NCBI RefSeq assembly: GCF_056712565.1 | Contig: NZ_CM160072.1 | Strand: one strand, 5' to 3' | Length of the DNA: 64,000 nucleotides | Part shown: piece after piece, positions 15,001-21,000 of the stretch | Layout of the letters: each line of letters starts with the position of its first letter | Numbering within the stretch: position 1 is the first letter of the stretch | Position numbers: made by a program

Positions 15001-18000
15001 CCGGCAGAATTACGGCACGAGTCAGGAAGGATAAGACCACAGGCTGGATTTTTGCAGAGGCAACGATTCAGGCAATTGATGGTGAGTTAAAAATAGGCTC
15101 TCAGATACAGTATTCTCCTGAGCGGGGTGGGGCAACAGTATCTGGTGACTATATTTATCTTGCCACCCCACAAGTAGAGAATGGGCCGTGTGTATCATCA
15201 TTTATTATTTCAGGAGGCAGCGCAACGACAAGAGCCAGTGATTTGGTTAGTATCCCCACCAGAAATAATCTTTATAAGTTACCATTTACTTTTTTACTTG
15301 AGATTCATAAAAACTGGGATATTGCACCAAACGCCGCACCCCGCGTGTGGGATATAGCAGCAGCCAATACCGGGCAATCAGCAATTGCAGCAATCAACAG
15401 AGGTAGTGGTAAGTTATATATGAGTCTGTCAAACCCTTCAGGCTTGTATGTTAATAGCGCAGCGACAGATGTATTTGCAGAGAAAACCACATTTGGATGT
15501 ATTGCAAAAGCTGATGGTCACTTTCATGTGGTGACAAATGGTAAAGCGGTTAATGAAGTTTATTGTGAATATAATGGTGTGACCGCTGATAAAAATATCC
15601 GATTTGGAGGGCAGACGAATACTGGAGAACGACATCTGTTTGGCCATATTCGCAATTTCCGCATATGGCATAAAGAATTAAATGACAGGCAATTAAAAGA
15701 GGTCGTATGAAAGATTTAACTTTGAAGTTTCATGACAAACTGCAGTTTAAGGCCTTCCTGTCATCTCTTGACTGGGAGGAGGATGAAGACTTCCAGAATA
15801 AACTGTTAGTCGATGAAATTGGTTTCACCTACACAGAAACAGGGGTAACAGAAGAGGGAGAACCTGTCTGTGTCCGGAATGACGGTTATTTTGTCAACAT
15901 TCGCATTCTTGATGACTTGTTTGATGTTTCTGTATTCTCTGATTATGTCGTGGAGCTGGAAACACCGCTTCGGGAATGGAGCTGAAAGGAGGAAATAATG
16001 GATATAAGCCCCTTACTTCATGCGCTTTGTGCTGTGGCTGCGCAGATACTGGTTGGTCTTTTTACCGGAAACTGGGCTTACGGAGCGATAGCCGGTTGTA
16101 CGTTCTTCATTGCGCGTGAACATACCCAGGCAGAATATCGCTGGATTGAAATGTTCGGGCATGGCAAGCGAATGAATATGCCGTGGTGGGGCGGTTTTGA
16201 TCCGCGAGCTTGGGATGTGGCAAGCCTGATGGATTTTGCTGTGCCGGTGGTGGCGTGTCTGCTGGTCTGGCTGTTGGTTAATCGTGGGTGAAAAAAGGTG
16301 AGCTGTATATGCAACGGAGGAAGAAACCCCGTTGCTGGAAGCCAGGAAAAAGTATCGGGTGTTGCTGTCCTCGGATGTTGTGCTAATTGGGTGATAACAG
16401 ATCCTGTGTATGGGAGTTTCCCTTTTTGCGTGCGTTGATGCTGGTAACGGCAAACGTCATGATGAACAAAACCGCGAATAAGACGACAATCGTCGGAGCT
16501 GGTGCGCTGTCGATAAAAAAGGACAACCAGACACCAGTCATTGACACTATTACCGATATGCCAGTCGCCAGTAGGAGCGCAATATGAAAGCGTTGTGTCA
16601 GGAGTACCGCAATGGCGCCAGGCGCAATGAGCAGAGAAATGGAGAGAATGATACCTACCGCTTTCAGCGTCGCCACAATGGTCAGAGAGACCATGCACAG
16701 CAGCCCATAATGCAGCCATCTCGTATGCAAACCGCTTACCTGCGCCTGTTGATAATCAAAGCTGAACAGCAAAAAATCCCGCCATTTTACGCTAATAACA
16801 AGTGTAACCAGCCCGGCAATAATCATCGTCTGGATTATATCGCCGATGGTTATCCCGAGCATGTCGCCGAAAAGAATATGGTCAAGATGTACGTCTGGTT
16901 TGACTGCAATATACAAGATCAGACCTGCGGCAAACATGCCAGAAAAAACAATCCCCATCACTGTATCTTGCTTGATTCGGCTGTTGTCTTTCAGGTATCC
17001 CGTCGCCACCGCGCAGAATACTCCGGCGACGAATGCCCCTGTAGCCAAAGGTAACCCCAGAATCCAGGCAAGCACGATTCCAGGAAAAACCGCATGACTC
17101 ATCGCGTCACCCATCAGTGCCCAACCTTTCAGGACCAGAAAGACCGACAGCAGCGCACAGGGTATGGAAACTACCAGTGAAATCAGCAGTGCGTGACTCA
17201 TAAAGGTGAACTGCAGTGGCTCCAGTAATAATGCCATCATGAGCGATCCTCCAGCGCCTTATGCGCACGCCGACGATTTGCCAAAAGCCCATGGGTGGGC
17301 GCAAAGACAAATGCTAAAAGAAACAGCAGTGTCTGCGCCACCACGATGATTCCACCTGTCGCGCCGTCCAGAAAGTAACTGACCCACGCGCCGAGGAAAC
17401 TAGTTACACTGCCAATAGTTACAGCAATCATGAGCAGGCGGGGAAAACGATCGGTTAACAACCATGCTGTTGCACCGGGAGTCACCACCAGACAGATCAC
17501 CAGAAAGGCACCAACCGTTTGCAGCGCCGCAACGGTCGAAACCGACAGCAGGGTGAAGAAGATGAGTTTTAATCTGCCCGGATGCAATCCAATAGCACGG
17601 GCGTGATTCTCGTCGAAAAAGGTCACCATAAGATCTTTCCATTTGAAAAAAAGCACGATGATCGAGAGAATGCCAATGATAGTGAGTTGCAGGATATCCG
17701 CCGGATCGATTGCCAGAATATTGCCCAGGACGATGGTCTGAATGTTCACAGATGTCGGGTTCAATGACACCATAAACAGCCCCAGGCCAAAAAAGGACGA
17801 GAAGATCAGACCGATGATGGCATCTTCTTTTAAGCGGGTGCGTTGGTTAAGAAACAGCATGCTGCCCGCAGCCAGTCCGCCGGAAAAGAAGGCTCCCAGA
17901 GAAAACGGAAGCCCCAGCATATATGCCCCCGCAACACCCGGGACAATAGAGTGCGACAACGCATCGCCAATCAGCGACCAGCCTTTTAGCATCAGATAGC

Positions 18001-21000
18001 ATGACAGGAAAGCGCAGAGACCGCCGACCATCGCCGAGACCCACATCGCATTGAGCATATATTCATAGCTGAAGGGTTCCAGTAGCACGTTCATCTTTCT
18101 TCCCTCTGCACCGCTGACGGTCGATGAGCCACAAAAGGGCGTTCATCGTCAGTAATAATGCTTTCTTCCGAGCCGTTAAGTGTGACATGGCGCAGTACGC
18201 CGCTAAAAGCCAGCTCCAGGTTCTCGGCTGTAAAAGTGGTGTCTGTCGGCCCGCTTGCCAGGACGGTGCCTTTGACCATGACCGTATAATCGCAAAATGT
18301 CGTGACGGATCCGAGATTGTGTGTTGAGACAAGCATCGTTTTGCCTTCCGCGCGTAACTCCCTCAACAGGCTGATGATTTTGGCTTCGGTTTTCACATCA
18401 ACGCCGGTAAAAGGTTCATCCAGCAGGATCACATCACCCTGCTGTGCAATCGCTCTCGCCAGAAAGACGCGTTTCTTTTGTCCACCGGAAAGCTCGCCGA
18501 TTTGTCGATGGCGAAAATTCACCATATCGACACGTTCCAGCGCATCGGTGACAATCTGACGATCCCTCTTTTTGGCGATACGCAACATACCCATATGCCC
18601 ATAGCGGCCCATCATCACCACATCTTCCACCAGTACAGGAAATGACCAGTCAACATCTTCTGACTGAGGGACGTAGGCAACCAGGTTTTTCTGTAACGCC
18701 TGTCGCGTGGGAATACCCAGAACAGATATCTTTCCGCTGGTCAGACGCACAAATCCCATAATCGCTTTAAACAACGTCGATTTTCCGGAACCGTTTACCC
18801 CAACCAGAGCGGCAATAGATCCGCCTGGTACTGTGAAGGATGCATCGCGCAGTGCTGTGTGCCCGTTACGCCAGGTGACAGTAACATCATTAACGACAAT
18901 GCCTGCAGATTGCATCATTATTTCTCCCTTTTCCCAGCTTTAATTCCCTGTACCAGCGTACTGGTAGTAACCTTAAGAAGGTCGATATACGTCGGTACCG
19001 GGCCGTTTTCTGTGCTCAGGGAATCGACATAGAGCACACCGCCGTAGTGTGCGCCGGTTTCACGCGCAACCTGACGCGCTGGTTTATCGGAAATCGTACT
19101 CTCGCTAAAGACTGCCGGGATATGATTTTTCTTAACTATATCAACAACCTTACGTACCTGCTGCGGTGTTCCTTGTTGATCGGCATTAATCGGCCACAGA
19201 TAAAGCTCTTTTAGCCCCAAATCGCGTGCGAGATAAGAAAAAGCCCCTTCACTGGTGACCATCCATCGCTGATTCTCAGGGAGTTCCGTAATCTGCTTAC
19301 GCAGGGGGGCAAGGGTTTGGGTAATCTTGGCTTTATAAGTATCGGCATTGCGTTGGTAGGTTTGTGCATTTGCCGGATCGTATTTTATCAACGCATCACG
19401 AATATTATCGACGTAAATCAGAGCATTATCTGGCGACATCCATGCATGGGGGTTAGGTTTGCCCTCATAGGGTCCTTCGGTGATCCCTACAGGCGTCACA
19501 CCCGAAGAGACAATTACTTCTGGAACCCCATTGAGATGCTGGTAAAAGCGTTGGAACCACAATTCCAGATTCATACCATTGGCGAGAATCAGTTGTGCCC
19601 CCTGCGCACGTTTAATATCGCCAGGGGTAGGCTGATACTCATGAATTTCTGCACCAGGCTTGGTTATGGATGAGACTTCTGCAGCATCTCCCGCCACGTT
19701 TTTGGCCATATCCGCGATGATGGTAAATGTTGTAATGACCTTGAATTTTTCAGTTGCACTTGCCTGAAATGCGATCGAGCAGGTGAGTGCGAGGCCCCCC
19801 AAGAGCATGGTTACTTTTTTTATCGAGTGCATAATTTAGTACCTATAGTGAGCAAAATTAGAACAAACATAGCAACGGCTATGTTTTATAGCACAACCTA
19901 TACAAAATGAAAATGATTATCATTAGCGGTTTTGAGGCCCAAAACAGGGATTAGGTTGTTTCCGGCTGGCGACGCGTTATTGAGGAAAAAAGTAAGGCAG
20001 CTAGTAGGCTTTGAAATAACGTTTTGCGGTTGGCTGATGCAATTTCGAGAGTGCATGTATTGAATGATTTCTAGCCGTTACTGATTTTCGTATTTTTTGT
20101 ATGGGAGGATTTGCACCTCTCCCCACCGAGCCTCCATGACTTTACTCCACTGTCTCTAGGGCTGCTGTGTGCCAGGAGCGGAAGCAGGGGGGCCAGAGAC
20201 TCCTTAAAAGTTGATAGCTCGTTTTGCAGGGAGACTTACACGGTAAGCGTTATTCCGAAGAGCTTAAAATTGAAGCAGTCAAACGGGTTGTTGAGCGTGT
20301 TTATGCGCTGCCATCTGATTAATCGACGGAAGCAGTTCCGTTTGGTCTATGATGCAGTTGTCCGGCAGGCGCTCTGTGACGCAAAAGAACGATAGGAGTA
20401 GCATTGAAGTGAACGAGGTTATGCTTGTCTTATATTATCCTCTATTTTAAAAACATCAGCTGGTTGTGTAAGAGTTTTTATTGTTTTATCTTGTTGACTT
20501 TGCTTTTATGAAAACAGAGTGATTGATACAATGAAAACCTTAAGTGGGAAAGAGTTTAGGAAATTATTTAATCGTTATGAGACAGGATTCTATCTAAGTG
20601 AGTTTGAATACTTAAAGGACTTTGATCCTTTGTTTCCTGAATGCGTAGGGAAAGAATTAAAGTTGGGTTATAAACGAAAAGTTGATGTATGGTGCGAAGA
20701 GGATGCTGCGCTATATGCAGAATTTATAGCTACAAAAGAAAGGCTGAAAAGAGGCCGGTTAATCCTAAAAATAAACCAAGTGTGGTCGCGTGTATATCCT
20801 GCTTATATTTATGCAATTGAAGAAAGAATAAATGTCAGGGCAAAGGGGAGAGAGTCATTTAAGTATGAAACTGTGCAAGAAAAACAATGTAAACTTTCCA
20901 TAATGTTAGATGGTCTGAAAGACCTTGAATGTGAAATAGCTATGATTTCAAGTGAGTTTGAAATTGAAAAACACTCTATGCACTATTTTTATATGATTTT

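Follow-up and report, generated by a model that had tools for sequence, protein, structure and literature searches.

A sitABCD metal-importer operon with Fur and MntR-type operators in the cargo region of a phage-21-type prophage at icd

The 64,000-nucleotide stretch of DNA analysed here (contig NZ_CM160072.1 of assembly GCF_056712565.1; hereafter the window) carries a sitABCD operon as cargo in the b region, at the right-hand end of a phage-21-type prophage in icd; very probably the operon has its own promoter, controlled by Fur and MntR. The element is a lambdoid prophage of the phage 21 type (genus Jouyvirus) integrated in icd, which goes under the name 'PAI-icd' in the genomics of extraintestinal pathogenic Escherichia coli (ExPEC), and its cargo encodes an ABC importer for Mn2+ and Fe2+ that depends on a periplasmic binding protein. 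Running antisense to the late operon of the phage, the sit genes would be transcribed from a putative promoter of their own and could therefore be expressed in the lysogen while the phage genes are repressed. Control would be exerted in trans by repressors that the host encodes: Fe2+-Fur acting on a Fur box that overlaps the putative -35, and Mn2+-MntR acting on two tandem ATAGC-N4-GCTAT palindromes located at the putative extended -10 and the putative start site. Because both proteins would repress, the cell would make the importer only under simultaneous shortage of the two metals.

The sitABCD operon

The sit genes form four head-to-tail minus-strand ORFs between 16383 and 19832, which encode a binding protein, an ATPase and two permeases (Table 1). 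The tail genes occupy the plus strand, in agreement with the initial annotation, which had described a complete sit operon antisense to them. The match of SitB to NF011630 reached the curated equivalog score (592.9 bits, cut-off 393), and comparison with ExPEC sit loci, which had been suggested as a check, showed that the RefSeq-annotated sitABCD genes of several ExPEC genomes are 100% identical in DNA to those of the window, the S88 genome being 99.1% identical to the window. Transport of both Mn2+ and Fe2+ has been reported for the Sit systems of APEC, Shigella and Salmonella (PMC3852070). Judged from its genes, and with transport taken from that literature, the operon is a SitABCD-type importer for Mn2+ and Fe2+. 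A terminator scan of positions 16200-20300 revealed none after sitD, where the only downstream structure was a weak hairpin with no adjacent T run.

Table 1. Features of the sit region and of the prophage around it, in window coordinates
Feature	Position	Strand	Basis
Phage 21-type late genes: 3' end of head protease/scaffold gene (C), then D through J	1..13591	+	Colinear with phage 21
Side tail fibre gene (stf), 686 aa; last structural gene ahead of the cargo region	13650..15710	+	Protein identical to phage 21 CPT_21_22
Small phage ORFs, 92 and 97 aa (phrog_1361, phrog_1443), convergent with sitD	15707..16291	+
sit module, 3.66 kb, with both MntR boxes and the Fur box	16356..20020	.	~97% identity to IncF plasmid copies and to sit of a different lambdoid prophage
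sitD, inner-membrane permease, 285 aa	16383..17240	-	ORF; metal ABC permease family matches; RefSeq name on identical DNA; protein identical to phage 21
sitC, inner-membrane permease, 285 aa	17237..18094	-	ORF; family matches; RefSeq name on identical DNA; protein identical to phage 21
sitB, ABC ATPase, 275 aa	18091..18918	-	NF011630 (manganese/iron ABC transporter ATP-binding protein)
sitA, periplasmic Mn/Fe-binding protein, 304 aa	18918..19832	-	Mn substrate-binding protein families, E ~1e-60; RefSeq name on identical DNA
MntR box 2, perfect palindrome AAACATAGC-N4-GCTATGTTT (N4 = AACG)	19865..19886	.	Half-sites, conservation
MntR-type box 1, imperfect, TTGTATAGG-TTGT-GCTATAAAA on the sit strand	19884..19905	.	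Conserved two-core spacing
Putative extended -10, TGCTATAAA	19885..19893	-	Read from sequence
Putative -35, TTTTCA, 17 nt from the -10, overlapping the 3' end of the Fur box	19908..19913	-	Read from sequence
Fur box, GCTAATGATAATCATTTTC (sit coding strand)	19909..19927	-	17/19 to consensus GATAATGATAATCATTATC
Low-GC ORF, 252 aa (phrog_20520), between sit and the attachment site	20531..21289	+
Prophage right junction (attR): icd 3' fragment and ~50 bp of phage 21/host homology, crossover somewhere inside	21750..21964	+

Fur box and putative promoter

The Fur-box-like site that the initial annotation had placed at 19908-19926 is real, but it lies one base further right. AT-rich DNA often contains Fur-like strings, and the region is AT-rich (GC ~0.43-0.44), which would fit a chance match that leaves the window copy of sit under MntR alone. 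This reading is very improbable: against a site matching 17 of 19 positions, only 0.05 matches per window are expected at up to three mismatches, and most of the enterobacterial sit promoters that were compared have a homologous AATGATAAnnATTTTC block at a conserved distance of 73-88 nt from the ATG. Mathieu et al. (2020; PMC6969025) describe a Fur box upstream of phage-borne sit in all cases, and their Fur-box figure (Supplementary Fig. 7) contains the same string as the window. Moreover, a Salmonella sitA-lacZ fusion is Fur-repressed (PMC8970401). Fur repression of the window operon is thus the preferred reading, and the conclusion reached by Mathieu et al., that sit is tied into the host Fur regulon (PMC6969025), matches that of the initial annotation. 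A sigma-70 consensus scan of positions 16200-20300 did not call the sitA promoter; the putative extended -10 was missed because its hexamer ends in A.

Two MntR-type boxes

The palindrome that the initial annotation had reported as a perfect MntR site was recovered at exactly its coordinates, 32 nt upstream of the sitA ATG, with half-sites identical to those of the MntR operator of mntH in E. coli K-12. It is the sole match in the window at up to three mismatches, where 0.04 would be expected by chance. The description of the operator as a single palindrome was incomplete, as there are two MntR-type boxes and the upstream one (box 1) had gone unnoted. The core of box 1 begins 19 bp upstream of that of box 2; box 1 overlaps the putative -10, and box 2 spans the putative transcription start. 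Taken together with the positions read for the promoter elements, the MntR operator would overlap both the -10 and the +1.

All 25 enterobacterial sit promoters examined have two ATAGC-N4-GCTAT cores in a constant 19-bp register, alongside a Fur-like block, and the core letters are invariant across these promoters in an alignment whose mean column identity is 61%. The boxes were absent from the alphaproteobacterial and Pseudomonas sit loci examined; the genome scan for SitA relatives kept 80 loci, with no Salmonella, Shigella or E. coli among them. Between the window and phage 21, the module accumulated 14 substitutions, none of which falls inside an MntR or Fur box. The two alleles that were compared are degenerate in opposite ways: in the IncF plasmid allele it is box 1 that is perfectly palindromic, with one mismatch in box 2, and in the phage allele the reverse holds. 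With ATAGG in place of ATAGC, box 1 of the window may bind MntR weakly or not at all, and occupancy of both boxes is a prediction from their sequence.

Alternatively, box 2 could work in the sitA leader RNA, its palindrome forming an attenuator or terminator hairpin in place of a DNA operator; the terminator scan did list a stem of 9 bp here, with a T-rich tail after it on the sit strand. This possibility deserves very little credence. The leader folds no better than shuffled sequences (z = -1.23; 27/200 shuffles fold at least as well), and the ATAGC and GCTAT letters themselves are invariant in the 25 promoters, whereas an RNA stem would give compensatory changes; on these two grounds the terminator-like call was rejected. 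Furthermore, the half-sites are those of the mntH MntR operator, and the putative start site lies inside the palindrome, so that a transcript would include part of the hairpin only.

The K-12 mntH promoter resembles that of sit in having a Fur box upstream of AAACATAGC-N4-GCTATGTTT near the start codon; it differs in that it has a single full MntR palindrome and belongs to a core chromosomal gene encoding an NRAMP and not an ABC transporter. Reviews cite genetic evidence that MntR and Fur repress sit in Salmonella and Shigella (PMC3852070 and PMC8970401), and the former states that the two proteins repress both sitABCD and mntH (PMC3852070). Repression of the window operon is taken from this literature. 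The sitABCD operon of Salmonella enterica belongs to the same transporter family and shows the same MntR and Fur repression (Ikeda et al., 2005, as cited in PMC3852070 and PMC8970401), but it occupies a chromosomal island next to SPI-1, with no prophage. The word MntR is found nowhere in the supplementary files searched for PMC6969025 (0 occurrences), nor in any of its retrieved main-text passages. A rather unlikely extension of these observations is that the sit promoter is a double MntR operator and not the single box that is generally mentioned, with a 19-bp register invariant across Enterobacterales and an upstream box doubling as the extended -10, and that the reciprocally degenerate phage and plasmid alleles could set different manganese thresholds.

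The prophage and its boundary

Positions 1-21964 of the window are colinear with coliphage 21 (OL657228.1), with 99.1% identity over 21,964 bp and one 1-nt indel; the 193 substitutions are clustered in genes L, K, I and J. Gene order is identical from the head genes to attP, and the phage 21 record runs stf (19234-21294), two ORFs, sitDCBA (21967-25416), a hypothetical ORF, an icd' pseudogene, attP (27563-27599) and int (27611-28753), the icd 3' fragment beside attP being what integration at icd would lead one to expect. Window and phage 21 do not differ in the Fur box or in either MntR box, and their SitA and SitB proteins differ by 1 aa each. Unlike the window element, an integrated prophage, phage 21 is a free phage genome. 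Its GenBank record is without Fur or MntR site annotation and terms the transporter 'iron-magnesium', and a literature search found no paper joining phage 21 and sitABCD. The 15 late genes checked in the window, from D to stf, have no internal stops, and the cargo ORFs are intact too. In the S88 copy of the prophage, the O gene is frameshifted and the tail fibre gene is split; the window itself does not include the early region.

The right edge of the prophage was mapped by several comparisons. An icd fragment lies at 21749-21913, where the S88 annotation has an icd pseudogene fragment, and the match to phage 21 ends at 21964. Genomes whose site is empty begin to match the window only at 21750-21755, and the sit operon is therefore within the prophage. 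The right end of PAI-S88-icd (1229738) corresponds to window position 21966, and icd, int and xis make up the other end of the element in S88. As a phage 21-type (Jouyvirus) prophage at icd, the element shows both the duplication of the icd 3' end at the junction and the colinear high identity to phage 21. Placement in the prophage b-region, as the initial annotation had it, is borne out by flanks arranged as in phage 21, with the side tail fibre gene and two small ORFs on one side and the icd' fragment and attachment site on the other. The annotation had also considered that the operon might fall outside the prophage limits once these were mapped; sit lies ~1.8 kb inside the right edge.

The same layout recurs in other phages. 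Lambda-type coliphages of infant gut E. coli (ev017, ev207, 1H12 and others) are 98.9-99.8% identical over the stretch from tail fibre through sit to icd', and coverage of the 7.5-kb sit context reaches 80% or more in 20 phage records. The position of sit is that of the lambda b-region, in a layout common to the autonomous phage 21 genome and ~20 other deposited lambdoid phages. According to Mathieu et al. (2020; PMC6969025), sitABCD ranks first in frequency among the virulence factors carried as cargo: 70% of the lambda phages studied have it and ~30% lack it. Among 5426 complete E. coli genomes, 2577 carry sit, and 863 have it in exactly this prophage context.

In ExPEC genomes the element has been catalogued as a pathogenicity island and not as a phage 21-type prophage. 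PAI-S88-icd, PAI-CFT073-icd, PAI-UTI89-icd and PAI-536-icd (PMC7545054) are the same element as the window prophage; PAI-S88-icd (1183142-1229738) is listed with Iss and the Sit system, and PAI-CFT073-icd also carries the 'Sit system' (PMC7545054). It could accordingly be proposed that sit belongs to a non-phage island that merely abuts the prophage, a proposal to which the PAI-icd label, the description of a 'PAI sit' as unstable with multiple insertion sites, a possible IS3-family fragment just upstream of sit and the IS1 flanking a plasmid sit copy would lend themselves, yet it has very little probability, since the same layout from stf to attP is present in packaged phage 21 and in lambdoid phage genomes derived from induction or virions, the icd' junction is located 1.8 kb past sit, and PAI-S88-icd and the prophage share coordinates.

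The mobile sit module and neighbouring ORFs

Within the prophage, the operon and its operators form a module that is also found on other carriers. IncF plasmids (e.g. pETN48, NC_014615.1) have a copy that is 96.8% identical, with the same ends and the same architecture of one Fur box and two MntR boxes; the carrier, unlike that of the window, is a conjugative plasmid with IS1 beside the module. Terminal direct or inverted repeats were searched for at the module ends, 16356 and 20020, and only short repeats at chance level were detected, so the module has no transposon-like structure. As the operators are shared through the module with IncF plasmids and another lambdoid prophage, they are not phage-specific. 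The initial annotation had presented them as host metal regulation built into a phage-borne transporter: they are present and conserved, but they are not a phage adaptation. From sequence comparison, they are ancestral parts of the enterobacterial sit promoter that move with the module.

The 252-aa low-GC ORF and the small ORFs matched only PHROG families with no assigned function and had no matches in Pfam or NCBIfam; with PADLOC nothing was significant, the best hit being PDC-M13C (E = 0.0077, 14.5 bits), with no stretch passing alone. The possible IS3-family fragment (~20242-20300) was recognised by reading the peptide GKRYSEELKIEAVKRVVER. A 94-aa ORF (20111-20395) that overlaps it in a different frame had no family match, and the annotators of phage 21 called the IS3 similarity of a neighbouring ORF 'unconvincing'. 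An Rfam scan of the whole window gave no RNA element at sit; its sole match was the C0299 sRNA at 37629-37707.

Concluding remarks

The carriage of sit by phages, the island, the Fur box and the regulation by MntR and Fur are already known, all published or deposited, and so no new biology is added to them. Beyond this, the present analysis contributes another MntR-type box, the imperfect one at 19884-19905, recognised by its motif and spacing. The sit operon of the window is a textbook-style case of lysogenic conversion, in which a temperate phage brings a metal importer. According to the literature on its association with virulence, the importer helps E. coli and Shigella against metal withholding by the host and against oxidative stress. 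The importer would arrive with a promoter already wired to the Fur and MntR repressors of the new host, which bears on how fitness traits spread among ExPEC.

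The sit operon and its putative operators

The sit operon of the phage 21-type prophage inserted in icd consists of four ORFs that overlap one another, all on the minus strand and thus opposite to the tail genes (see table). Over 3.8 kb the DNA is 100% identical to the RefSeq-annotated sitD, sitC, sitB and sitA of ExPEC genomes such as SF-468, S88 and APEC O1. SitB passed the curated equivalog model of the manganese/iron ABC ATPase (592.9 bits; cut-off 393), while family searches matched SitA, SitC and SitD to metal ABC binding-protein and permease families. Upstream of sitA, the perfect MntR palindrome (box 2) is the sole match in the 64-kb window at up to 3 mismatches (0.04 expected) and lies exactly where the initial annotation had placed it. 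The Fur-like site (0.05 consensus matches expected at up to 3 mismatches) is also real, but its coordinates had been given as 19908-19926, one base too far to the left. Since the sit ORFs, the palindrome and the Fur-like site have all been located, the description of a complete operon antisense to the tail genes with adjacent metal operators is confirmed.

Features of the window and of the related prophages
Feature	Position	Strand	Basis
Side tail fibre gene	13650-15710		
Module common to sit carriers	16356-20020		
sitD	16383-17240	-	ORF; RefSeq name on identical DNA
sitC	17237-18094	-	ORF; RefSeq name on identical DNA
sitB	18091-18918	-	ORF; RefSeq name on identical DNA; equivalog model passed
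sitA	18918-19832	-	ORF; RefSeq name on identical DNA
MntR box 2, perfect, AAACATAGC-AACG-GCTATGTTT	19865-19886		Motif search
Putative sitA start site	near 19878		
MntR-type box 1, imperfect, TTGTATAGG-TTGT-GCTATAAAA (sit strand)	19884-19905		
Putative extended -10, TGCTATAAA	19893-19885		
Putative -35, TTTTCA	19913-19908		Read from sequence
Fur-like site, GCTAATGATAATCATTTTC (sit strand)	19909-19927	-	17/19 to consensus
IS3-like peptide, GKRYSEELKIEAVKRVVER	~20242-20300	+	By-eye reading
252-aa ORF	20531-21289	+	
C0299 sRNA	37629-37707	+	Rfam, 111.9 bits
Metal-uptake cluster, ymgE-treA	51807-58275	-	S88 annotation
TonB C-terminal-domain protein	S88, L004 20599-20925; phage 21, L003 41259-41585		

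The half-sites of box 2 are identical to those of the E. coli K-12 mntH promoter (...TTTGATAATCATTCTC-(15 nt)-AAACATAGC-AAAG-GCTATGTTT-(14 nt)-ATG), where a Fur box likewise stands upstream of the palindrome. At sit, the core of a second, MntR-type box (box 1) starts 19 bp upstream of the box 2 core. This arrangement was followed in 25 sitA upstream regions, namely those of the window, phage 21, plasmid pETN48 and 22 chromosomal loci from Enterobacter, Lelliottia, Pluralibacter, Shimwellia, Citrobacter, Cedecea, Klebsiella, Erwinia and Pantoea. Two ATAGC-N4-GCTAT cores with a spacing of exactly 19 bp were present in all 25 of these enterobacterial promoters, which was unexpected, and most of the regions also contain a Fur-like block, of the type AATGATAAnnATTTTC, 73-88 nt from the ATG. 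In a 12-sequence alignment the core letters were invariant, against a mean column identity of only 61%. The alphaproteobacterial and Pseudomonas sit loci examined had no such cores. Box 1 is imperfect in the window; in the plasmid allele, the sit copy of pETN48, box 1 is a perfect palindrome and box 2 has one mismatch. None of the 14 substitutions that separate the window from phage 21 in the 3.66-kb module falls within a box. A reading of the palindromes as RNA hairpins was rejected, because the half-site letters are conserved without compensatory changes and the leader folds no better than shuffled sequences (z = -1.23). The palindromes are thus putative DNA operators.

Prophage context and right boundary

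Phage 21 (OL657228.1), a classical lambdoid phage of the genus Jouyvirus, is colinear with positions 1-21964 at 99.1% identity, the sole indel being 1 nt at the end of gene L. Its curated record places a pair of small ORFs after the side tail fibre gene, then sitDCBA in the opposite orientation, further small ORFs and a hypothetical gene of 252 aa; next come a pseudogene that corresponds to the final 53 codons of icd, attP, int and xis. The four sit genes are annotated there, without Fur or MntR sites. In E. coli genomes with an empty site, homology to the window starts only at 21750-21755, within the icd 3′ end, and the match to phage 21 stops at 21964, which puts the right junction between 21750 and 21964, with sit about 1.8 kb further in. 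As the left end falls beyond the window, it was examined in S88 (99.1% identical), where int, xis and an early region like that of lambda come directly after an intact icd. This gene order and the mapped junction bear out the proposal that sit occupies the lambda b-region position, and place the operon inside the prophage, not outside its boundaries. At least 80% of the 7.5-kb stretch from tail fibre through sit to icd′ is covered in 20 deposited phage genomes, among them phages obtained from infant gut E. coli isolates or viromes and others linked to ECOR strains. Thirteen substitutions relative to phage 21 cluster at 21808-21936, in the icd fragment, where all are silent, and just beyond; this fits the fragment at the junction being the host's own icd 3′ end, displaced, and not the copy carried by the phage.

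Among the late genes, all those examined from D through the side tail fibre gene are intact, and so are the cargo ORFs. The side tail fibre protein matches its phage 21 counterpart exactly, whereas in S88 the gene is annotated as split (L001 17351-19411) and replication gene O is frameshifted, so the source-strain copy may be less decayed. Between sit and the attachment site, a 252-aa ORF of low GC (~0.33-0.35), identical in phage 21, may be another cargo gene; its sole match was phrog_20520 (unknown function), with none in Pfam or NCBIfam and none significant in PADLOC. A short out-of-frame peptide resembling the N-terminus of an IS3-family OrfA transposase, read by eye without family-search support, could be a scar of the entry of sit into the phage. 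Outside the window, further envelope/uptake-related cargo of this prophage type comprises a small TonB C-terminal-domain protein beside bor/iss near cos and, after Q in S88, an OmpC-like porin. Away from the prophage, a second accessory metal-uptake cluster between ymgE and treA would, by the S88 annotation, encode a TonB-dependent receptor, ModD, a SAM methyltransferase and the ATPase, permease and binding protein of a FecCD-type ABC transporter; a search allowing 3 mismatches to the consensus found no Fur box there. In Rfam, the C0299 sRNA alone passed the gathering threshold anywhere in the window.

Distribution and the shared module

Of 5426 complete E. coli genomes, 2577 contain the operon, which was located at 2413 chromosomal and 1066 plasmid places; in 863 of the 2577, 80% or more of this very prophage context is present. 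Other lineages carry it at the corresponding position in a different lambdoid prophage, one adjoining uspF and ompN, where it again comes after the tail fibre genes, at the prophage's right end. Plasmid copies amount to 1121 records, mostly conjugative (pETN48, the one looked at in detail, is IncFIA/IncFIB); they share with the window only the module (96.8% identity), and essentially the same stretch is common to the uspF-site prophage. The unit common to all carriers is thus this 3.66-kb module, which includes both MntR-type boxes, the Fur box and ~93 bp beyond them. Its ends are sharp, and no terminal repeats were found at either. In pETN48 an IS1 lies ~170 bp past the sitA-side end. One plasmid-labelled 150-kb record from human blood (NZ_CP082081.1, 76756-84252) holds the whole 7.5-kb context at 99.9% identity, which could mean either that a segment of the prophage resides on a plasmid or that the assembly is at fault.

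Regulation and relation to previous work

The putative -35 element would overlap the 3′ end of the Fur box and, after a 17-nt spacer, the extended -10 would fall within box 1 and the start site within box 2, although a consensus promoter scan did not call this promoter. Fe-Fur would then occlude the -35, and Mn-MntR the -10 and start site, a layout that would correspond to the usual repressor geometry. Both regulators are host genes encoded outside the window. MntR and Fur are reported to repress sitABCD and mntH in Salmonella and Shigella, as cited in PMC3852070, and this repression has been demonstrated genetically (PMC8970401). The reading of host metal regulation as built into a phage-borne transporter is correct. 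Being convergent with the late operon and having its own putative promoter, sit would be expressible in the lysogen; during lytic growth, antiterminated late transcription would probably run antisense through it.

The carriage and regulation of sit on this prophage are already known. The island has been catalogued as PAI-S88-icd (1183142-1229738, 'Iss, Sit system'), with equivalents in CFT073, UTI89, 536, RS218, IHE3034, APEC O1 and LF82 (PMC7545054). Among the lambda phages of Mathieu et al. (2020; PMC6969025), 70% have sitABCD, with a Fur box in every case; Supplementary Figure 7 of that paper gives essentially the same upstream sequence, both palindromes included, and makes no mention of MntR. 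To this, sequence comparison would make three modest additions: the putative operators are part of a discrete module common to phage and plasmid carriers, a second MntR-type box is present and deeply conserved, and phage and plasmid alleles differ in which box is perfect.
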